Source of the DNA: Planctomycetota bacterium
GTDB taxonomy: Bacteria > Planctomycetota > UBA1135 > GCA-002686595
DNA: 64,000 nt
NCBI GenBank assembly: GCA_041398605.1
Contig: JAWKUK010000026.1
Coordinates: forward strand, 1,207-65,206
Direction: 5' to 3'
How positions within the stretch are numbered: position 1 is the stretch's first letter; the number at the start of each line of letters is the position of its first letter. A model generated the notes under the pieces. The model was not told the DNA's origin and searched no databases. It worked only from the letters and a program-made list of their open reading frames with translations. Made by a program: the position numbers and the translations under genes. Shown one piece after another: positions 9,658 through 21,699 of the stretch.

Positions 9658-10359
9658 ATGGCCGACCAGATCGACTACCGCATCCTCGGCGAGGACTTCC
9701 ACGCCGTCGTGATCACCCTCGACCCCGGCGAAGCCGTGCGCGCGGAGCCGGGCTCGCTCATGTACATGGAGCGCGGGATCGACATGGGCACGTCGATCGG
9801 CGGCGGGCTCTTCGCGGGCCTCAAGCGCAAGCTCGCGGGCGAGGGCTTCTTCGTCACGACGTTCACCAACGAGGACCGCGTCCGCCGCGACGTCGCGTTC
9901 GCATCGGAGTTCCCAGGGAACGTCCGCGCGATCGACCTCTCGCGCGGCGACGTCTATTGCCAGCGCGACGCGTTCCTGTGCTGCGCCTACGGCGTCGAGG
10001 TCTCGGTCGCGTTCACGAAGCGCCTCGGCGCGGGCTTCTTCGGCGGCGAAGGCTTCATCCTCCAGAAGCTCTCCGGCGACGGCCTCGCCTTCATCCACGC
10101 CGGCGGCCACATCGTCGAGCGCGAGCTGGCCGAGGACGACGAGCTCCGCGTCGACACCGGCTGCCTCGTCGGCTTCGAGCGCACGGTCGACTACGACATC
10201 AAGCTCGTCGGCGGCGTGACCTCCAAGATCTTTGGCGGCGAGGGCCTGTTCCTCGCGCGCTTGCGCGGCCCGGGCCGGATCTGGATGCAGACGATGCCGT
10301 TCTCGCGCTTCGCGGACCGCGTCGTCGCGGCGACGCGTGAGGCCACAGAAGAGACGTAG
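9658..10359 (+). CDS. TIGR00266/AIM24 (DUF124) family protein
   Basis: MADQIDYRILGEDFHAVVITLDPGEAVRAEPGSLMYM... and GEGFILQKLSGDGLAFIHAGG are characteristic. The track ORF begins at TTG 9649, and ATG 9658 is preferred. Confidence 0.8.
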   Translation: MADQIDYRILGEDFHAVVITLDPGEAVRAEPGSLMYMERGIDMGTSIGGGLFAGLKRKLAGEGFFVTTFTNEDRVRRDVAFASEFPGNVRAIDLSRGDVYCQRDAFLCCAYGVEVSVAFTKRLGAGFFGGEGFILQKLSGDGLAFIHAGGHIVERELAEDDELRVDTGCLVGFERTVDYDIKLVGGVTSKIFGGEGLFLARLRGPGRIWMQTMPFSRFADRVVAATREATEET

Positions 10360-10465
10360 CGCCCCAAGAGAGACCGGCGGCGACGCGGAGGCTTTGACGC
10401 GTCCGCTCAGCCGTGACCCTGCTCGAGCGCGCTCGAGCGCGAAGCATTGCAGCGAACGAATTCCG

Positions 10466-11770
10466 ATGACACGCATCTCCCGTAGGCAGTTCAGCCAGCT
10501 TGGCGCCCTCTTTCCGTTCCTCGGCACGTCCTTGGGGCGCGCTCCATTCGTGCGCTCGGGGCCGCTGCGCGATCGGCCCCGCCTCGCGGTGATCGGGGTG
10601 TGGAACCGCGGCCGATCGAACCTCGAAGGCGTGCTCGACGCGGAGGGGGAGGTCAAGCTCCTCGCGGACGTCGATTCGAAGCACCTCGGGCTCGCGGCGA
10701 AGCTCGTCGCGGATCGGGGCCAGGCGGCGCCGCAGCTGATGGCCGACTGGCGCGCCGCCCTCGAGCGCCCGCGCGAGCTCGACGGCGTCGTCATCTCGAC
10801 GCCGGACCACCTCCATGCGCCGATCGCGTCCGCTGCGCTCGCGCGCGGCCTCGCCGTGTATTGCGAGAAGCCGCTGGCGCACACGGTCGAAGAGGCGCGC
10901 CTCCTGCAGAAGCTCGCGCACAAGGCGAAGGTGGCGACGCAGATGGGCATTCAGATCCACGCCGGCGACAACTACCGGCGCGTCGTCGAGGCCGTGCGCG
11001 GCGGCGCGATCGGCGACGTGCGCGAGGTGCACGTCCTGTGCTCGAAGAGCTGGTCCGACGGCCGCTACGGCGAGGCCAAGCCCGTCCCGGAGCAGCTCGC
11101 CTTCGACCTGTGGCTCGGGCCGGCGGCGGAGCGCCCCTACACCGAGGGCTTGCACCCCGCGTGGTGGCGCAAGTTCTGGGACTTCGGCACCGGCACCGTC
11201 GGAGACATGGCGTGCCACTGGGTCGACCTCGTGCATTGGGCCCTCGAGCTCGGGCGGCCGAGCGCGGTCACGTCCGTCGGCCCCGAGGTGCACCCGGACG
11301 GCACACCGGCGTGGCTCCACACGACGTGGGAGCACCCCGCCGCCAAGGGGCGGCCCGCGGTCGCCGTGCATTGGTGGGACGGCGGCAAGCGCCCTGAGAT
11401 CGCGCGCGAAGGCTGGAACGACTGCCACATTTGGGTGGGCTCAAAGGGCCGCATCTACAGCACCTACTCGAAGCACGAGGTCGTGCTCGACGACCCGGAC
11501 GCGGCCTACGAGGCGCCCAAGCAGACGCTCGCGAAGTCGCGCGGCCACTACGTCGAGTGGATCCAGGAGATCCAGGGCGGCGAGCGCACGTCGTGCCCGT
11601 TCGACTACTCGGCGCCGCTGACCGAGGCGGTGCTGCTGGCGACCGTCGCGTTCCGCGCGGGCGCGCCGCTCAAGGTCGACGTCAAGTCCGGCGCGGTCAC
11701 GGGCGCGGACGGCGTCGAGGCGCTGCTGACGAAGTCGTACCGCGCGGGCTTCGGCTTGACCACGGCCTGA
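10466..11770 (+). CDS. Gfo/Idh/MocA family oxidoreductase with Tat signal
   Basis: Start at ATG 10466 (MTRISRRQFSQLG, twin-arginine). Motifs LAVIGVWNRG, VVISTPDHLH and YCEKPLAH. The upstream part of the 512-aa ORF is Arg-rich junk. Confidence 0.8.
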   Translation: MTRISRRQFSQLGALFPFLGTSLGRAPFVRSGPLRDRPRLAVIGVWNRGRSNLEGVLDAEGEVKLLADVDSKHLGLAAKLVADRGQAAPQLMADWRAALERPRELDGVVISTPDHLHAPIASAALARGLAVYCEKPLAHTVEEARLLQKLAHKAKVATQMGIQIHAGDNYRRVVEAVRGGAIGDVREVHVLCSKSWSDGRYGEAKPVPEQLAFDLWLGPAAERPYTEGLHPAWWRKFWDFGTGTVGDMACHWVDLVHWALELGRPSAVTSVGPEVHPDGTPAWLHTTWEHPAAKGRPAVAVHWWDGGKRPEIAREGWNDCHIWVGSKGRIYSTYSKHEVVLDDPDAAYEAPKQTLAKSRGHYVEWIQEIQGGERTSCPFDYSAPLTEAVLLATVAFRAGAPLKVDVKSGAVTGADGVEALLTKSYRAGFGLTTA

Positions 11771-11801
11771 GCGGCAGCGGCCACAGGCTGCGCGGCGCGC
11801 G

Positions 11802-12416
11802 TCACGCGTCCGCGAGCAGGTGCGCCGGCAAGTCTGACTCCGCGAGGCGCGCGCGCAGCCGCTGCCAGCGCTTCGCCACGGCCTCAAGCGAGAGGCCGAG
11901 GCGCGGCGCGACCTCCTTGTACGACAGGCCCTCGAGCCCGCAGTGGAGGACGAGCTTCTGCTCTTCCGGCGGCAGGGACGCGACCGTGGCGCGGAAGCGC
12001 GCCAGGCCCTCATCGCGCGCGAGCCGCATCGACACCCCTGTGATGCTGTCGGCGAGCGCGTCGAGGGCGCGCAGCCGCTCGCTGGAGCCGCTGCCAACGC
12101 GCTCGGCGCGCTGGCTCTGCCGCGTGGCCTCCAAGAGCACGTTCTTCGCGATCCTGAAGATCCAGAACCGGAACGGGGTCGACTCGGAGTCAAACCCCTC
12201 CAACTGCCGCCACGCGCGGAACCAGACCTCCTGCACGAGGTCGCCTGGCTCGATCACGGCGCGCTGCTCGGGCCGGATGCGGAGCTCTGCCCAGGTGTGC
12301 AGCGCGGGCGCGATGTGCTCGTAGAGCCGCGCAAAGCCGTCCGCGTCGCCGCCCTGGGCTTCGGACAGCCACTGCGCGGTCACGCCGTCGAGCTCCTCGC
12401 GCGGGGGTCGTTCCAC
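11802..12416 (-). CDS. ECF-type RNA polymerase sigma-70 family factor
   Basis: Region 2 is DLVQEVWFRAWRQLEGFD..FRFWIFRIAKN. Region 4 is LSYKEVAPRLGLSLEAVAKRWQRLRARL. GTG start. No adjacent anti-sigma ORF. Confidence 0.85.
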   Translation of the reverse strand: MERPPREELDGVTAQWLSEAQGGDADGFARLYEHIAPALHTWAELRIRPEQRAVIEPGDLVQEVWFRAWRQLEGFDSESTPFRFWIFRIAKNVLLEATRQSQRAERVGSGSSERLRALDALADSITGVSMRLARDEGLARFRATVASLPPEEQKLVLHCGLEGLSYKEVAPRLGLSLEAVAKRWQRLRARLAESDLPAHLLADA

Positions 12417-12548
12417 GGGGCCATCCTACCCCGTTCCGGCGCACACGCTTGGGCCGACCCCGTTCTGGCGCAAGCGCCTGGACCGCGCCTCGGCAACGTC
12501 GCCGCGGCGTAGGGCCTCGGGAGGCGCGGGGGCTATCCTCGGGGAGGC

Positions 12549-16454
<3,906 letters not shown>

Positions 16455-16486
16455 CCGGAGCCCCGAGATGGGAATCCCTTGCCGGG

Positions 16487-16528
16487 AGTCCAGTGACGGG
16501 AATCCAGTGACGGGAATCCAGTGACGGG
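16487..16528 (+). repeat. 14-bp tandem array x3 (AATCCAGTGACGGG)
   Basis: One variant plus two perfect copies lie in the 233-bp spacer between the kinase gene and the first secreted paralog. A related GGGAATCCC lies at about 16470. Confidence 0.9.
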
Positions 16529-16687
16529 ACGTGTGCAGCGGCTCCCGCGAGCCCGCAGCGGAGAGTCTCGCAGATTTCTGTCCAGGCGCGCCCGGTGGGC
16601 TCACTTGGAAGGGAACACGCAGCGGCCCGTGCAGGCCGTGCGACCCCCTTCGAGACCCGAACCCGCCTCCACGAGGCCCTCCGCGCC

Positions 16688-18451
16688 ATGCAGATCCTTC
16701 GTTCCGCAGCCACGACGTTTGTCGCCGCGCTCGCCCTGCCGCTCCTCGCTGGAGAGGCCTCCGCGCAGACCCGTTACCTCTTCTCGATCGATTGGCAAGG
16801 CGCCACCGTCGGTATGCCGTCGGTCAGCGGCGCGCCGATCACCGAGGGCGACATCCTCGCGCCGAGCACCGGCACCTCGATGCCTGCGCTCGCCGCGCCG
16901 GCGCCGCCGATGATCGCGATCCCGCACGGGCTGGGCGGCCTCGGCCTGGCGACGGGCTGCGCCGGTCACGCGGGCGGCACCCCGTGCAACATCGAGGTCG
17001 ACGCGCTGTCCCGCGGCATCGACTTCCGCTTCCAGCCGAACGTGCCGATCCGTCCTGGTCAGATCCTGTTCTCGGTCGACGAGTACGCGGTCGGGCTGCC
17101 GGCCGGCCCGATGCCGAACGTCGTCAGCGAAGCGCCCTTCGGCGACGGCGCTGCGGACAGCTTCGTCAACCTGGGCCTGATGCCGCCGGCGCCCCTCTCG
17201 CCGATGTTCGGCCGCCACGTCGGCGTGCAGGACGGCGACGGCTTCGCCTCGGGGTCGGGTTACACCTACCCGGGCGTCGGCATCCGCGAGCCGATCGTCG
17301 CGGCGCCGGGCCCGTTCAACGGCGGCGACAACATCGACGCGCTCGACGCCGTCGAGCCGGTCGCTGGAACCACGTTCATCGGGACGTTCTTCAGCCTCGA
17401 CTCGAGCTTCCCCGACTTCATGGACCTCGTGCCGAACACGGGCTCGGCCATCGCGCACGGCTTTGTCGGCGGTGACGTGCTCGTCGCGACGTCCGCCGGG
17501 ACGATGGTCTACGCGCCGGCGACGATGCTCGGCCTCGACCTCATCGGCGGGCCGGACTCCGACGACCTCGACGCGCTGATCCTCGCCGAGACGGGCGCGC
17601 CGGGCTACCAGCCCTCGTTCCAGCCCTACGATTGGATGTCGCCGAACGCGGACATGCTGATCTTCTCGGTGCGCCGCGGCTCGGCCGTCATCGGGATGCC
17701 CGACAGCATGTTCGGCCTGCCGATCCAAGAGGGTGACCTCCTGATCCCGCCGATCCCGACCGCGCTCGGCGGGGTCTCGCCCTTCCCCGCGATCTTCATC
17801 GCCGCGGAGAACCTCGGCCTCTCGACGCTGCGCTTTGCCGGCACCGCCGACGACCTCTGCGCCGCGGACGCCTTGCACCGGCACCTCTTCGACTGCGACG
17901 GGGACGGCGTCGAGGACGCGATCGGCATCGCCGCCTTCGGGGTCGCGGACACGAACATGGACGGGGTGCCGGACTCCTGTGTCTCGGGCCCGGTCGGCAC
18001 GCCGTACTGCTTCTGCACCGCCGCCGCCTCGCCCTGTGGGAACGCGTACGCCCTCGGCGGGTGCCTCAACGCGACCGGCACCGGCGCGGTCCTCTCGGGC
18101 TCGGGTTCGACGAGCGTCGGCGCGGACAACCTCGTGTTGACGACGACGGGGATGAACCCCGGCGGCTTTGCCCTGAGCTTCATGAGCGTCGGGATGGTCG
18201 GTCCGCTGCCGGTCCAGAACGGTCTGCTCTGCGCTGGTCCGAGCATCTGGCGCCTCGGCCTCTACCCGACTGGTCCCGGGACGGCGAGCTTTGGGCCGGG
18301 CCTCGTCGCTCTGACCGCGGGCAACCCGCCGGCTGGCCAGATCACGGCCTTCGCCACCTGGAACTTCCAGACCTGGTACCGCGACCTCGGCGGCCCCTGC
18401 GGCGGCGCCTCGAACTTCTCGAACGCGCTCACGGTGACCTTCGTGCCCTGA
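16688..18451 (+). CDS. secreted protein of unrecognised family, tandem paralog 1 (FSxDWQG/ITEGDIL modules + acidic DxDGxGVxD/NxDGVPDxC motif + C-terminal QxWYRD domain)
   Basis: Start at ATG 16688 with signal peptide MQILRSAATTFVAALALPLLAGEASAQ. Composition is strongly coding-like. It is collinear with the next gene over its whole length. Confidence 0.8.
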   Translation: MQILRSAATTFVAALALPLLAGEASAQTRYLFSIDWQGATVGMPSVSGAPITEGDILAPSTGTSMPALAAPAPPMIAIPHGLGGLGLATGCAGHAGGTPCNIEVDALSRGIDFRFQPNVPIRPGQILFSVDEYAVGLPAGPMPNVVSEAPFGDGAADSFVNLGLMPPAPLSPMFGRHVGVQDGDGFASGSGYTYPGVGIREPIVAAPGPFNGGDNIDALDAVEPVAGTTFIGTFFSLDSSFPDFMDLVPNTGSAIAHGFVGGDVLVATSAGTMVYAPATMLGLDLIGGPDSDDLDALILAETGAPGYQPSFQPYDWMSPNADMLIFSVRRGSAVIGMPDSMFGLPIQEGDLLIPPIPTALGGVSPFPAIFIAAENLGLSTLRFAGTADDLCAADALHRHLFDCDGDGVEDAIGIAAFGVADTNMDGVPDSCVSGPVGTPYCFCTAAASPCGNAYALGGCLNATGTGAVLSGSGSTSVGADNLVLTTTGMNPGGFALSFMSVGMVGPLPVQNGLLCAGPSIWRLGLYPTGPGTASFGPGLVALTAGNPPAGQITAFATWNFQTWYRDLGGPCGGASNFSNALTVTFVP

Positions 18452-18783
18452 GCGGGATGGACGGATCGCAGACCGCCTCACACGGGGCGGGTCGGACCCC
18501 CGCTCGCCCCGGGGTCCACGTGTCCCGCCCGGCGACCCTTCGATGCAGCCCCCAGCGGGGCACGGAGGGCGCCGGGCGGGCGCGTTTCTTCGATTCCCGG
18601 TCCAGAAGCCGGCGGCGCGTGCATTTGGGTGCGGGGGGCCTGCGCCGAGCGAGGCTGTCCATTCCCGAGACGCCTCTCCGCAGCGAAATGGAACCTGGAC
18701 CGCGCTGCGACGCTCCACTTGTGCGCCTTCGAGCGGAGCGGCGCTCGCACCCGTAGACTCGAACAGCCCACCTGCACACTGCC

Positions 18784-20577
18784 ATGCACCGAGCCACCCG
18801 ATCGCGACTCTCGTGCGGCCTGCAAGCCGCCCGCTTCGCTCTCCCTGCCGCGCTGCTCGCGACGCAAGCGAGCGCCCAAGTGCCGACCGAAGTGACGTTC
18901 TCCGTCGACTGGCAAGGACCGTTGATGGGCGTGCAGTCCAGCACCGGCCTGCCGATCACCGAGGCCGACCTGCTGAGCCCGGGTGGCGCGATCTTCAACT
19001 CCGGGACGCCGGGCATCCGCATCCCGGGCGCGTTCCTCTCGCGCTACTCGACCTGTGTCGGCCACGCCCCTGGTGTGTCGTGCGGCGTCGAGCTCGACGC
19101 GCTGTCGTTCGGCAGGGACGCGCGTCTGCGTCCGACGGCCGCGTATCAGTTCGACCTGCTCTTCTCTGTCGACGAGCACGCGGTCGGCGCGCAGGGGCCG
19201 TTCGCGCCCAACGTCGCGACCGAGGCCGCCGCAAACGAGGCGGCGGGCGACGTCTTCATGCGGCGGTTCACCGGCGCGGGTCCGTTCCAGCCCGGCGCAG
19301 GCTTCAACTTCGCGGTCATCGACGGCGACGGACAGCGCAGCACCTCCGGCGCGCTGTATCCGGGGCTCGGGCTCAAGGAGCCGATCCCCGCGACGCCGAC
19401 CGTCCCAGAGCTCGGGGACAACCTCGACGCGTTCGACATCGGGCCGCCGCCGACGGTCGGAACGCGGACGTTCTTCTCGCTCGAGGGTGGCCTGCCCGAC
19501 CCGCGCGAGCCCAACGTCGCGATCACGAACTCGGCCGGCTTGCAGCCGGATCCGAACGGCACGTTGTCGTTCAACGGCGCAGACGTCTTGGTGATCGACA
19601 ACGCCGGCGTCGTGTTCTTGTACGCCTCCTCGGATCAGCTCGGCCTGTCGGGCAACGGCTTCGACGACATCGACGCGCTGATGGTCGTCGAGAACGGCGT
19701 CGCGGGGTATCAGCCCTCCCTCGTGCCGTATGACTGGATCCAAGGCGCTGGCGGCGGCCCGCGCGACCTCGTGCTCTTCTCGGTGCGCCGCGGCTCGGCG
19801 ATCATCGGCATGCTCGACAGCCAGTTCGGGATCCCGATCACGGAGGGTGACATCCTCGGGCCGCCGCTCGGCGGCACGATCGGGCAGCGCCCTTCGATCT
19901 TCATCGCGGCGGAGTCGCTGGGCCTGCAGACGAGCCGCGGCCAGTTCTTCGAGGCCGGCGACGACCTCGACGCGCTCGACATGCGCGATGACACCGAGGA
20001 GCCGTTCAAGGACTGCAACGAGAACGGCGTCGAGGACGGCCTCGAGGTGTCGAGTGGGAGCTCGCCCGACATCGACGGCAACGGCGTGCCCGACGAGTGC
20101 GAGTCGGCAGGCGAGGCGTTCTGCGACTGCGACACCGCGGCGGAGGCGGCGTGTGGGAACATCTCCGTGACGGGCCGTGGGTGCGTCAACAACACGGGGG
20201 TCGGCGCGCGCCTGATCGGCACGGGGACGAGCTCGGTCGCGACGGACGCGCTGAAGCTGACCGCCTCTTCGATGACCCCGAACACCTTCGGCGTCGTGTT
20301 CATGGGGATGACGGCGGGGTCGGCTGTGCCGCCGTTCAGCAACGGCCGCGTGTGCGTCGGCGGCTCGACCCGGATCAAGATCGCGCCGACAGGCCCGACG
20401 GGCTCCTTCGACTACGGCCCTGGCATCCTCGCGGATATCTCGCTCTTGCCTTTGCCGCCTGTGGTCACGCCTGGCTCGACGTGGGGCTTCCAGGTTTGGT
20501 ACCGAGACATCGGCGGCCCGTGCATCGGCGGCGTCTCGAACTTCACCAACGCGTGGCGCGTGCTGTACACGCCTTGA
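18784..20577 (+). CDS. secreted protein of unrecognised family, tandem paralog 2
   Basis: Signal peptide ends ...LLATQASAQ. It shares with paralog 1 the motifs FSVDWQG, PITEADLL, FSVDEHAVG, GDNLDAFD, DDIDALM, PYDW, LFSVRRGSAIIGMLDSQFGIPITEGDILGPP, IFIAAESLGL, DCNENGVEDG..DIDGNGVPDEC and FQVWYRDIGGPC..SNF. Confidence 0.8.
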   Translation: MHRATRSRLSCGLQAARFALPAALLATQASAQVPTEVTFSVDWQGPLMGVQSSTGLPITEADLLSPGGAIFNSGTPGIRIPGAFLSRYSTCVGHAPGVSCGVELDALSFGRDARLRPTAAYQFDLLFSVDEHAVGAQGPFAPNVATEAAANEAAGDVFMRRFTGAGPFQPGAGFNFAVIDGDGQRSTSGALYPGLGLKEPIPATPTVPELGDNLDAFDIGPPPTVGTRTFFSLEGGLPDPREPNVAITNSAGLQPDPNGTLSFNGADVLVIDNAGVVFLYASSDQLGLSGNGFDDIDALMVVENGVAGYQPSLVPYDWIQGAGGGPRDLVLFSVRRGSAIIGMLDSQFGIPITEGDILGPPLGGTIGQRPSIFIAAESLGLQTSRGQFFEAGDDLDALDMRDDTEEPFKDCNENGVEDGLEVSSGSSPDIDGNGVPDECESAGEAFCDCDTAAEAACGNISVTGRGCVNNTGVGARLIGTGTSSVATDALKLTASSMTPNTFGVVFMGMTAGSAVPPFSNGRVCVGGSTRIKIAPTGPTGSFDYGPGILADISLLPLPPVVTPGSTWGFQVWYRDIGGPCIGGVSNFTNAWRVLYTP

Positions 20578-20592
20578 GCGCGCAGCGCTCTG

Positions 20593-20624
20593 GCCGCGCG
20601 CGGGACGCTCGTGTCGCGCGCGGC
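20593..20624. terminator. 10-bp GC stem hairpin between convergent genes
   Basis: GCCGCGCGCG-12 nt-CGCGCGCGGC lies in the 60-bp gap between the paralog 2 stop and the ltaE stop. It is a possible bidirectional terminator with no U-tract. Confidence 0.5.
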
Positions 20625-20637
20625 AACGCGGCGTTGC

Positions 20638-21699
20638 TCACAAGAGGCGGCGCAGCGCGGCGACTGCGGCGTCGATGTCAGCGGCCGTGACGTCCAGGTG
20701 GGTCACGAGGCGCAGGCGCGCGCCGCCGGTGCACAGGACGCCCGCGGCCGCCAGGCGCTCGACGGCGCCCGGGGCCTCGAGTGGACCCCTGTCCGACACC
20801 TTGTCTGGGTCGAGCTCGACGAAGACGATGTTCGTCTCGGGCGGTTGCACGCGCACGCCAGGCAGCCCTTGCAGCCCGTCGGCCAGCGCGCGGGCGTTGG
20901 CATGGTCGAGCGCGAGCCGCTCCACGTGGTGGTCGAGCGCGTACAGCGCCGCCGCTGCGAGGACGCCGGCTTGGCGCAGCCCTCCGCCGACCATCTTGCG
21001 GATGCGCTGAGCGCGCCCGATGAGCTGGCGCGTGCCGACGAGGGCTGAGCCGATCGGCGCGCCGAGGCCCTTGCTGAAGCACACGGAGACGCTGTCGAAG
21101 TGGCTCGCGATGCGCGCCGCCGCTGCGAACGGGTCGCCGCCGCTGGCGACGGCCGCATTGAAGAGGCGCGCGCCATCGAGGTGCGTCGCGAGCCCAGCGC
21201 GGCGCGCGAGGGCGGTCGCGTCTTCGATGTAGTCGAGCGGCAGGACGTGGCCGCCCCAGGTGTTCTCGAGCGTCAAGAGCCGCGTGCGCGCGTAGTGCGG
21301 GTCGTCGGGCTTGATCGCGGCTTGGATGTCTGCGAGCGGGATCGAGCCGTCGGGCGCCTGGGTGAGCGGCTGCGGTTGGATGCTGCCGAGCACCGCGGCC
21401 CCGCCGCCTTCCCACCGATAGGTGTGCGCCATCTGACCGACGAGGTACTCGTCGCCGCGCTCGCAGTGCGCCATCAGCGCGCAGAGGTTGCTCTGTGTGC
21501 CGCTCGGCACGAAGAGCGCGGCCTCCTTGCCGAACAGCGCGGCGACGCGCGCTTGGAGCGCGTTGACCGTCGGGTCATCGCCAAAGACGTCGTCGCCGAC
21601 TTGGGCCGCCGCCATCGCGGCGCGCATCCCGGCGGTCGGGCGCGTGACGGTGTCGCTGCGGAGGTCGATCACGGTGGGGGGCGGCGCGAGAGGGGACAC
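20638..21699 (-). CDS. ltaE: low-specificity L-threonine aldolase
   Basis: Motifs [45 protein letters not shown] (PLP Lys) and GGGLRQAG. The start is uncertain. GTG 21699 gives a typical length, while the track ORF extends to ATG 21792. Confidence 0.85.

Follow-up and report, generated by a model that had tools for sequence, protein, structure and literature searches.

Sigma factors of the extracytoplasmic function (ECF) class that are linked to kinases have been predicted in planctomycetes from gene order since 2012. The present analysis deals with a locus of this kind in a 64-kb stretch of DNA (contig JAWKUK010000026.1; hereafter the window, meaning the whole stretch analyzed) of a Planctomycetota metagenome-assembled genome (MAG) related to Saltatorellus ferox. 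It holds an ECF sigma gene, a divergent gene for a membrane Hanks-type Ser/Thr kinase (STK) with a WD40-like sensor, and two tandem genes for secreted paralogs, here called parA and parB. ECF groups that are linked to such kinases and lack anti-sigma factors have been described (PMC7826278). EcfP of Vibrio parahaemolyticus is directly phosphorylated by its kinase PknT (PMC8999054), and EcfK of Xanthomonas citri, which controls the type VI secretion system, is likewise phosphorylated, including at a site in a linker (PMC13147305). Both belong to ECF43, whose sigmas lack the acidic DxxD of region sigma2.2 and are activated by Thr phosphorylation in that region, at a conserved QTTA (PMC8999054, PMC13147305). 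The other kinase-linked groups keep the acidic motif, and their mechanism is uncharacterised (PMC8999054, PMC7826278).

The locus shares with EcfP/PknT an ECF sigma without an anti-sigma factor and an adjoining membrane Hanks kinase (PMC8999054). It differs in that the sigma2.2 motif (D/E)PxDxVQE is kept in all 23 aligned orthologues and in the cultured strain S. ferox Poly30, in that the sensor is a predicted tandem WD40 propeller, and in that the candidate targets are a secreted family, whereas those of EcfP are polymyxin-resistance genes. The likeness to EcfK and its kinase PknS lies in a sigma activated by a kinase, as proposed here, and in targets lying beside the regulators (PMC13147305). 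EcfK also has a second activating phosphosite, T106, in the sigma2-sigma4 linker (PMC13147305), and the present sigma carries an invariant Thr and a Ser/Thr in that linker as a candidate site. However, the ECF group is another one, the periplasmic domain of PknS consists of tetratricopeptide repeats and not of WD40, and the target there is a secretion machine, whereas the candidate target here is a secreted-protein family. By description, the locus is likened to ECFSTK1-4 (ECF59-62) and ECF217, which are planctomycete sigmas with no co-encoded anti-sigma, a DAED-like motif and adjoining Ser/Thr kinases (PMC7826278, PMC8999054). As far as the literature searched shows, what defines those groups is the pairing of sigma and kinase; no description of a promoter or of a conserved target family was found for them there, whereas the present locus adds a third conserved component and a candidate promoter. 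The layout of the kinase, with a cytoplasmic Pkinase domain, one transmembrane segment and a periplasmic WD40 part, occurs among Planctomycetota WD40 membrane kinases, including those of the Saltatorellus clade, in the passages searched of a survey that is an architecture catalogue; the same passages link no such kinase to an ECF sigma or to secreted neighbors (PMC11032199). The sigma-kinase pairing and the WD40-kinase architecture are of already known kinds. Not found described in the literature searched, which is incomplete, are the secreted third component, a set of small open reading frames (mini-ORFs), the family-wide promoter and its pairing with a sigma residue. The features of the locus are as follows.

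11802-12416, minus strand: ECF sigma gene, 204 aa, G+C at third codon positions (GC3) 0.93, with PF07638, PF04542 and PF08281
12417-12548, no strand: divergent spacer between sigma and kinase genes, 132 bp, without the family promoter motif
12423-12428, minus strand: TAGGAT, a -10-like hexamer 6 nt upstream of the GTG start of the sigma gene
12549-16454, plus strand: Hanks-type Ser/Thr kinase gene, 1301 aa, GC3 0.93, single-pass
13260-13286, plus strand: degenerate catalytic loop HRDITPGII, with K242T and N245I, and G235V just upstream
14097-16376, plus strand: predicted periplasmic tandem beta-propeller sensor, aa ~517-1276, from an AlphaFold2 model and Foldseek
16579-16608, plus strand: family promoter-like motif TGTCCAGGCGCGCCCGGTGGGCTCACTTGG (putative -35 TGTCCA, 17-nt spacer, -10 CACTTG), 109 nt upstream of parA, 38.9 bits
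16688-18451, plus strand: parA, secreted paralog, 587 aa
18599-18628, plus strand: second promoter-like motif GGTCCAGAAGCCGGCGGCGCGTGCATTTGG, one mismatch, 185 nt upstream of parB, 22.9 bits
18784-20577, plus strand: parB, secreted paralog, 597 aa

It is clear that sigma, kinase and secreted family genes have been kept together in one planctomycete lineage. Eighty loci seeded by the paralog family were collected from species-representative genomes, and in 22 of them tblastn placed orthologues of the sigma (46-81% identical) and of the kinase immediately upstream. Each of these 22 loci belongs to a separate assembly, and in many of those assemblies there are one or two further family loci that are unlinked. 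The usual arrangement is a sigma gene on one strand and, on the other, the kinase gene followed by a family gene and often by a second one. Three loci (L016, L017, L026) are rearranged, so that parB follows the kinase on one side and parA follows the sigma on the other, with all four genes retained. In the reverse direction, 80 sigma-seeded metagenome loci were deduplicated, and the family gene was scored where at least 5.7 kb of flank was available. The divergent kinase is present in 38 of the 39 loci with room for it, and 13 of the 17 with sufficient flank have a family gene on the far side of it. In the closed genome of S. ferox Poly30, the genes for the sigma (P0293), for a WD40 kinase of 1319 aa and for a parB-like protein (46% identical, E = 3e-127) adjoin each other, and two further family genes are dispersed among unrelated housekeeping genes. 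The original prediction had asked whether homologs of the paralogs co-occur with an ECF sigma plus STK-WD40 pair and had read sigma, sensor kinase and exported proteins as one functional unit; this reading is supported by synteny in both directions, down to about 45% sigma identity, and by the rearranged loci and the closed genome.

The absence of an adjacent anti-sigma, which had also been noted, extends beyond the window. All-versus-all clustering of coding-like ORFs of at least 100 aa from 46 linked loci yielded as recurring genes only the kinase (42), the sigma (42) and the family (34). A hidden anti-sigma factor or phosphatase was looked for in these loci and none was found, the additional frequent clusters being antisense shadow ORFs. 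In the window, no anti-sigma ORF adjoins the sigma gene: the only gene past its stop, 31 bp away, is a convergent GFO-family oxidoreductase gene (10232-11770), and the 132-bp divergent spacer is as it had been described. At a G+C content of 72%, the window has long ORFs in all frames; the four genes are real, with GC3 values of 0.91-0.93 versus 0.67-0.78 for the shadow ORFs that overlap them.

Two tandem secreted paralogs outside any family had been reported, and this description stands. The products of parA and parB are 43% identical (E = 8e-120), and both have an AxA|Q signal peptide, with cleavage predicted at A26|Q27 in parA. Neither has a Pfam or NCBIfam match, none of 26 family members matches Pfam at E <= 1, a search of PDB sequences with the family profile gave nothing significant (best E = 0.66), and a Foldseek search of PDB folds with a model of pLDDT (predicted local distance difference test) 81.5 gave a best E of 4e-3 with a TM score of at most 0.15. 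The parA product is identical to hypothetical protein R3F49_22510 of a Planctomycetota MAG, and its relatives come nearly all from Planctomycetota MAGs, together with S. ferox Poly30. The family comprises at least 805 matches in a word-indexed search and 243 clusters at 50% identity (E <= 1e-30) in an exhaustive one, with several copies per genome. A third paralog (P0012) is present in the MAG of the window. Contigs with family genes were also binned as Paracoccaceae, Vicinamibacterales, Paceibacteria and Bacteroidota MAGs (L003, L013, L048, L078, P0042); these are probably mis-binned planctomycete contigs and not a wider distribution.

In parA, the N-terminal domain (aa ~28-400) contains internal repeats, of which R1 and R4 are matched by hhalign with a probability of 97.6% (E = 4e-12) and R3 and R4 with 93%, R2 being too divergent. 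It is followed by a linker of about 30 aa (aa ~402-431) with the pattern DCNxNGxEDxxDI..G.S.D.D..GxPDEC, and by a Cys-rich beta-sandwich domain that ends in FQxWYRD (FQTWYRD in parA). The linker module recurs 20-30 times in some giant proteins. It reads as two Ca-binding-type loops bracketed by cysteines, and both Ca binding and a Cys-Cys staple are predicted for it. Two loops of the DxNxNGxxD type recall the Ca-loop pairs of dockerins and EF-hands, but the family gives no Pfam dockerin, EF-hand or TSP3 match even at E <= 1. In a neighbor-joining tree, the parB-type genes group in a deep clade whose members nearly always sit beside sigma and kinase, and parA-type genes belong to a larger clade in which linked and dispersed copies are intermixed. 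The only unlinked gene of the parB clade lies in a parA-like/parB-like tandem (L069, 10001-13751) with no sigma or kinase within 10 kb upstream.

The upstream regions of the family genes share a promoter-like motif. Dyad enumeration in 36 upstream regions ranked TGTCC-N21-TTGG first, with exact occurrences in 10 sequences versus at most 6 in shuffled sets, and 27 sites yielded the consensus (A/T-rich)TGTCCRG-N-[GT][CT]CAnTTGGGAGTG, which reads as a -35 element TGTCCR, a 17-nt spacer and a -10 element CAnTTG (TGTCCR-N17-CAnTTGG). The loci, 1.36 Mb in total, hold 55 exact matches, of which 26 stand no more than 300 nt ahead of a family gene, linked or unlinked, and the others are mostly antisense inside family coding sequence or ahead of mini-ORFs. 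With leave-one-out scoring by position weight matrix (PWM), 59 of 121 family genes are above the 99th background percentile. The motif upstream of parA is the sole exact match in the window, where 0.14 are expected, and the only two strong PWM matches on either strand of the window are those at parA and parB. Since one promoter-like motif stands ahead of parA and another ahead of parB, and since the gaps before these genes measure 233 bp (kinase-parA) and 332 bp (parA-parB), the block from kinase to parB is probably not one operon. The paralogs are better read as part of a regulon than as a closed cassette, because the motif is shared by the large and partly dispersed family of which they are members. 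Another candidate promoter, GGAAC-N16-18-CGT/CTCC, was seen by eye ahead of parA and parB, but it failed to emerge in the dyad enumeration and was rejected.

The motif also usually precedes the mini-ORFs. Twenty-one of these were found (L043 5133-5351; L034 8387; L037 6955; L068 9599; L119 6208; L056 9489, among others), with 66-134 aa, typically 73-76, encoding a signal peptide and a single linker module, DCNxNG(I/V)ED..DIA.G.S.D.D..G(V/I)PDEC. In many linked loci they come right after the kinase stop, and elsewhere they precede certain unlinked family genes; the window itself lacks them. The idea that in some lineages the kinase C-terminus carries the linker motif of the paralogs was discarded, since the kinase C-termini lack the motif and the peptide belongs to these separate mini-ORFs.

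The sigma factor consists of sigma2 and sigma4 domains only, in about 200 aa, as in ECF (group 4) sigmas. Its best Pfam match is PF07638 (Sigma70_ECF), next to sigma2 (PF04542) and sigma4 (PF08281), it scores 88 bits against TIGR02937 (cut-off 43), and the NCBI annotation of the MAG places it in the sigma-70 family. Against TIGR02984 (Sig-70_plancto1) it scores 69.2 bits, short of the curated cut-off of 183.75. As in ECF43, a Hanks kinase adjoins the sigma without an anti-sigma (38 of 39 sigma-seeded loci). An uncharged sigma2.2 with a phosphorylatable Thr is not found: the window sigma reads EPGDLVQEVW, and (D/E)PxDxVQEVW is present in all 23 aligned orthologues and in Poly30. The analogy to EcfP that the original prediction had drawn fails at this defining feature of ECF43, and the EcfP switch would not simply transfer to this sigma. 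In the linker between sigma2 and sigma4, D123 and T126 are invariant and S/T129 is near-invariant in the 23-way alignment.

The control of the sigma gene itself appears to differ from that of the family. A TAnnnT box lies 4-9 nt ahead of the aligned sigma start in 63 of 89 orthologues, versus 17 of 1780 random positions, which suggests that the gene is constitutively transcribed from a housekeeping-type promoter as a leaderless mRNA and that control would therefore be post-translational. In the window, TATCCT also stands 9 nt before the kinase ATG (12528-12533). The family promoter motif exceeds the threshold of the PWM scan in one of 75 sigma-kinase spacers and is missing in the other 74. The target motif is not found upstream of the sigma gene, as it would be in an autoregulated ECF locus, and the gene is probably not autoregulated.

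A link between sigma and motif comes from the -10 tail of the promoter. Given that a PWM scan with the -35 element only was too noisy in the divergent lineages, a core-anchored pattern, TGTC[CG]-N18/19-CA[CT], was searched downstream of the kinase or the sigma and the next four bases were read. Loci with F or Y at sigma position 84 have a TT(G/A)(G/T) tail (17 loci, about 7 lineages), and those with A, L, P or R have CTGG, GGAG or GAAG (6 loci, 4 non-sister lineages). Among the 115 ungapped columns of the sigma alignment, just 2 separate both groups, namely position 84 and a hypervariable linker column. Poly30, which is outside this table, has F84 and TTGG-type motifs and fits the rule. Residue F84 of the window sigma sits in FRFW of sigma2, and we take this FR[x]W segment to align with the part of E. 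coli sigmaE beside the loop that contacts the -10 element. Among these loci the -10 tail co-varies with residue 84, which lends moderate support to the idea that the sigma reads the TGTCC promoter, and not more, since the column had been noticed before it was tested.

The kinase is a single-pass Hanks-type protein of 1301 aa, as had been described, with a Pkinase domain at aa 99-370 by Pfam (catalytic domain aa 91-400) and a single hydrophobic segment (aa 412-430). This segment is followed by a helical stretch, whose coiled-coil character was judged by eye. By Pfam, WD40 repeats are firm only in aa ~951-1301 (PF00400, 62 bits). The AlphaFold model of aa 471-1301 (pLDDT 73.6), built on a comparatively shallow alignment, is all-beta over aa ~517-1276 with about 68 short strands, and Foldseek matches it to tandem WD40 propellers (2YMU, Utp21/WDR, Apaf-1) with E <= 1e-22 over about 800 columns. 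The WD40-like propeller of about 800 aa that had been proposed is thereby supported by the model and its matches to solved propellers. In tblastn against the closest locus (L001), the propeller is 39% identical and the catalytic domain 78%, so the periplasmic propeller appears to evolve much faster than the catalytic domain. The cytoplasmic aa 1-90 (12549-12818; ..FDFVADFLDD..LTSYLARYPGHEEAIALEYLRL..) are conserved in at least 14 orthologues and have no domain match; they could be a sigma-docking element. After the last blade, every orthologue has a tail WP(V/I)DP(L/V)P..A..PR(E/D)L and a short charged helix (16350-16454 in the window).

The catalytic loop of the window kinase is unusual. The GRGGQG, VALK, REAE, HRD, DFG and APE motifs are kept in this kinase and in its orthologues, and HRD(I/V)KPxN is present in 22 of 22 orthologues; the window copy has neither the catalytic Lys nor the Mg-binding Asn. 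It carries five private substitutions (Y96N, L150I, G235V, K242T, N245I) at 64 otherwise invariant columns of the catalytic domain, none of which occurs in the closest genome relative. A nearer, metagenomic relative (L164, sigma 87% identical) has Y96, W110, G235, K242 and HRDIKPG, its contig ending before position 245. The loss of catalytic residues thus appears recent and private to this MAG, and the window kinase could be a real pseudokinase, a case of early decay or a consensus error. The label "(pseudo)kinase" of the original prediction is apt for the window copy, which has lost K242 and N245, and not for the family, in which 22 of 22 orthologues keep both.

Taken together, a kinase-controlled sigma that drives a dispersed regulon of secreted proteins is the reading that we consider somewhat probable. 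The sigma would be made constitutively from a leaderless mRNA and controlled post-translationally. The propeller of the kinase would sense an extracytoplasmic cue, and the kinase would activate the sigma, more likely at Thr126/Ser129 of the sigma2-sigma4 linker, as at T106 of EcfK, than by the ECF43/EcfP switch, given that the acidic sigma2.2 motif is intact. RNA polymerase with this sigma would then transcribe parA, parB, the dispersed paralogs and the mini-ORFs from TGTCC promoters, and the products would be exported as probably Ca-binding surface or extracellular proteins. In the MAG of the window, this switch would be broken or non-catalytic. From promoter specificity and from the co-variation of sigma and promoter, we infer that the secreted proteins are the output of the sigma.

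Several observations weigh against this proposal. The window kinase lacks two catalytic residues, and therefore the phospho-switch may not operate in this genome. The sigma gene lacks the TGTCC motif, so the usual ECF autoregulation signature that would tie the motif to the sigma is missing. Most genes of the parB clade, and the linked genes of several lineages, have no recognizable motif, and 4 of the 17 roomy sigma-seeded loci have no family gene, their sigmas being the most divergent (44-49% identity). The co-variation column was noticed before the test and sets about 7 lineages against 4, with one non-TT site (L019) read by eye and one match (L038) set aside as probably spurious. Moreover, we infer every regulatory arrow (transcription, phosphorylation, binding) from sequence.

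It is also possible, if rather unlikely, that the family proteins, and perhaps the mini-proteins, stand on the input side, as periplasmic or surface partners or ligands of the propeller, and are not (or not only) sigma targets. Genes of the parB clade are co-directional with the kinase and directly downstream of it even after rearrangement, and since they usually lack a motif of their own, they may be co-transcribed with it; the rapid evolution of the propeller relative to the catalytic domain is also what would be expected of a partner-binding surface. However, many members of the family are dispersed at a distance from the kinase gene, in the rearranged loci it is the sigma and not the kinase that parA-type genes follow, and the family-specific promoter co-varies with a sigma residue.

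We similarly hold it improbable that the TGTCC motif is read by another sigma or transcription factor, with the ECF/kinase pair regulating other genes and sharing only an envelope role with the family. The motif is missing upstream of the sigma, and over half of the genes that carry it are unlinked, both of which would fit such a factor. On the other hand, sigma and kinase are the sole regulators that recur beside family genes, there is one module per assembly beside several motif-bearing genes, position 84 co-varies with the -10 tail in a rule that Poly30 fits, and the motif is unlike the TTGACA/TATAAT consensus.

Restraint of the sigma by the kinase without catalysis, by anti-sigma-like sequestration at the membrane through the N-terminal ~90 aa or the surface of the kinase domain, appears quite unlikely. 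It would explain a window kinase that has lost the catalytic Lys and Asn and yet is an intact ORF of 1301 aa with a GC3 of 0.93, as well as the conservation in at least 14 orthologues of an N-terminal region without a known domain. A sigma that keeps the acidic sigma2.2 should, moreover, be intrinsically active and would need restraining. What speaks against sequestration is that 22 of 22 orthologues, and the closest relative too, keep every catalytic residue, and therefore catalysis is under selection in the family; the substitutions in the window arose recently and could reflect either decay or an error in the consensus, and no similarity to anti-sigma domains was found in the kinase. Gene order inherited by descent without functional meaning, to which the origin of all loci from one Planctomycetota lineage might point, is very improbable and largely refuted, given that the proteins have diverged to about 45% identity with differing flanks, that the order is rearranged with all members retained, and that the linkage holds from either seed.

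An extension of the regulon proposal, which is tentative and on balance doubtful, would make the locus a self-referential envelope circuit. In it, the sigma regulon would consist of secreted proteins and ~75-aa mini-proteins with a common Cys-stapled double Ca-loop module, these would themselves be sensed by the fast-evolving propeller, as feedback or as self/kin sensing at the cell surface, the switch would act through the sigma2-sigma4 linker or by non-catalytic sequestration and not through an ECF43-type sigma2.2, and the ~400-aa repeat domain would be a new fold.

The intergenic regions of the window contain further features, which are listed here.

16470-16529, plus strand: 14-bp tandem repeat GGGAATCCAGTGAC, 4.3 copies, 89% matches, between the kinase stop and the parA motif
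18569-18593, plus strand: terminator-like stem GCGCC-GGGCG-GGCGC followed by GTTTCTTCGA, between parA and parB; 1 found versus 2.2 expected, not above chance
20593-20624, no strand: GC-rich hairpin between the convergent parB and threonine-aldolase genes, no U-tract

The tandem repeat GGGAATCCAGTGAC is not present in the spacer of the closest orthologous locus (L001), the one spacer compared; either an array of binding sites or a neutral microsatellite could account for it. The hairpin at 20593-20624, which had been said to close the block, does exist (-41.5 kcal/mol). Its role as a closing element does not hold: with z = -1.6, 19 of 200 shuffles fold equally well and the U-tract of a terminator is absent, so it was rejected as a meaningful terminator and carries no weight here. 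No sigma70 consensus promoter was found in 11500-21000, and Rfam families gave only sub-threshold chance matches in the block, none of which explains the motif regions.

The surroundings of the module vary. The flanking GFO, threonine aldolase and FecCD genes of the window are conserved in none of the paralog-seeded loci, and the upstream amino-acid carrier is matched in the closest locus (L001) only. The GFO flank is common only to the window (10232-11770) and to its nearer metagenomic relative (L164, 1405-2694; sigma 87% identical), indicating that the surroundings turn over quickly. In Poly30, the gene after the sigma (L163, 10687-12036) encodes a non-family protein of 449 aa that has no Pfam match and hydrophobic C-terminal segments and was not seen in the other loci; its N-terminal stretch was judged by eye to be Nudix-like. 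In some loci (L037 10884-11837, L049 13831-14784, L030 16752-17642), the strand opposite the family gene carries, a few kb downstream of it, a second Hanks kinase gene whose catalytic domain is about 40% identical.

As far as can be seen from the literature searched, the planctomycete kinase-linked ECF sigmas have neither a target gene nor a promoter or signal assigned to them, and EcfP and EcfK, the only characterised examples, work by a switch that does not simply transfer to this sigma. To this question the locus brings a conserved third component and a candidate promoter, with a falsifiable pairing of sigma residue and promoter base (F/Y84 with TT). The window kinase is a candidate natural kinase-dead allele, and the same module is present in S. 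ferox Poly30, which is in culture and has a closed genome. Lastly, the locus marks a large family of secreted proteins that lies outside Pfam, NCBIfam and the solved folds.

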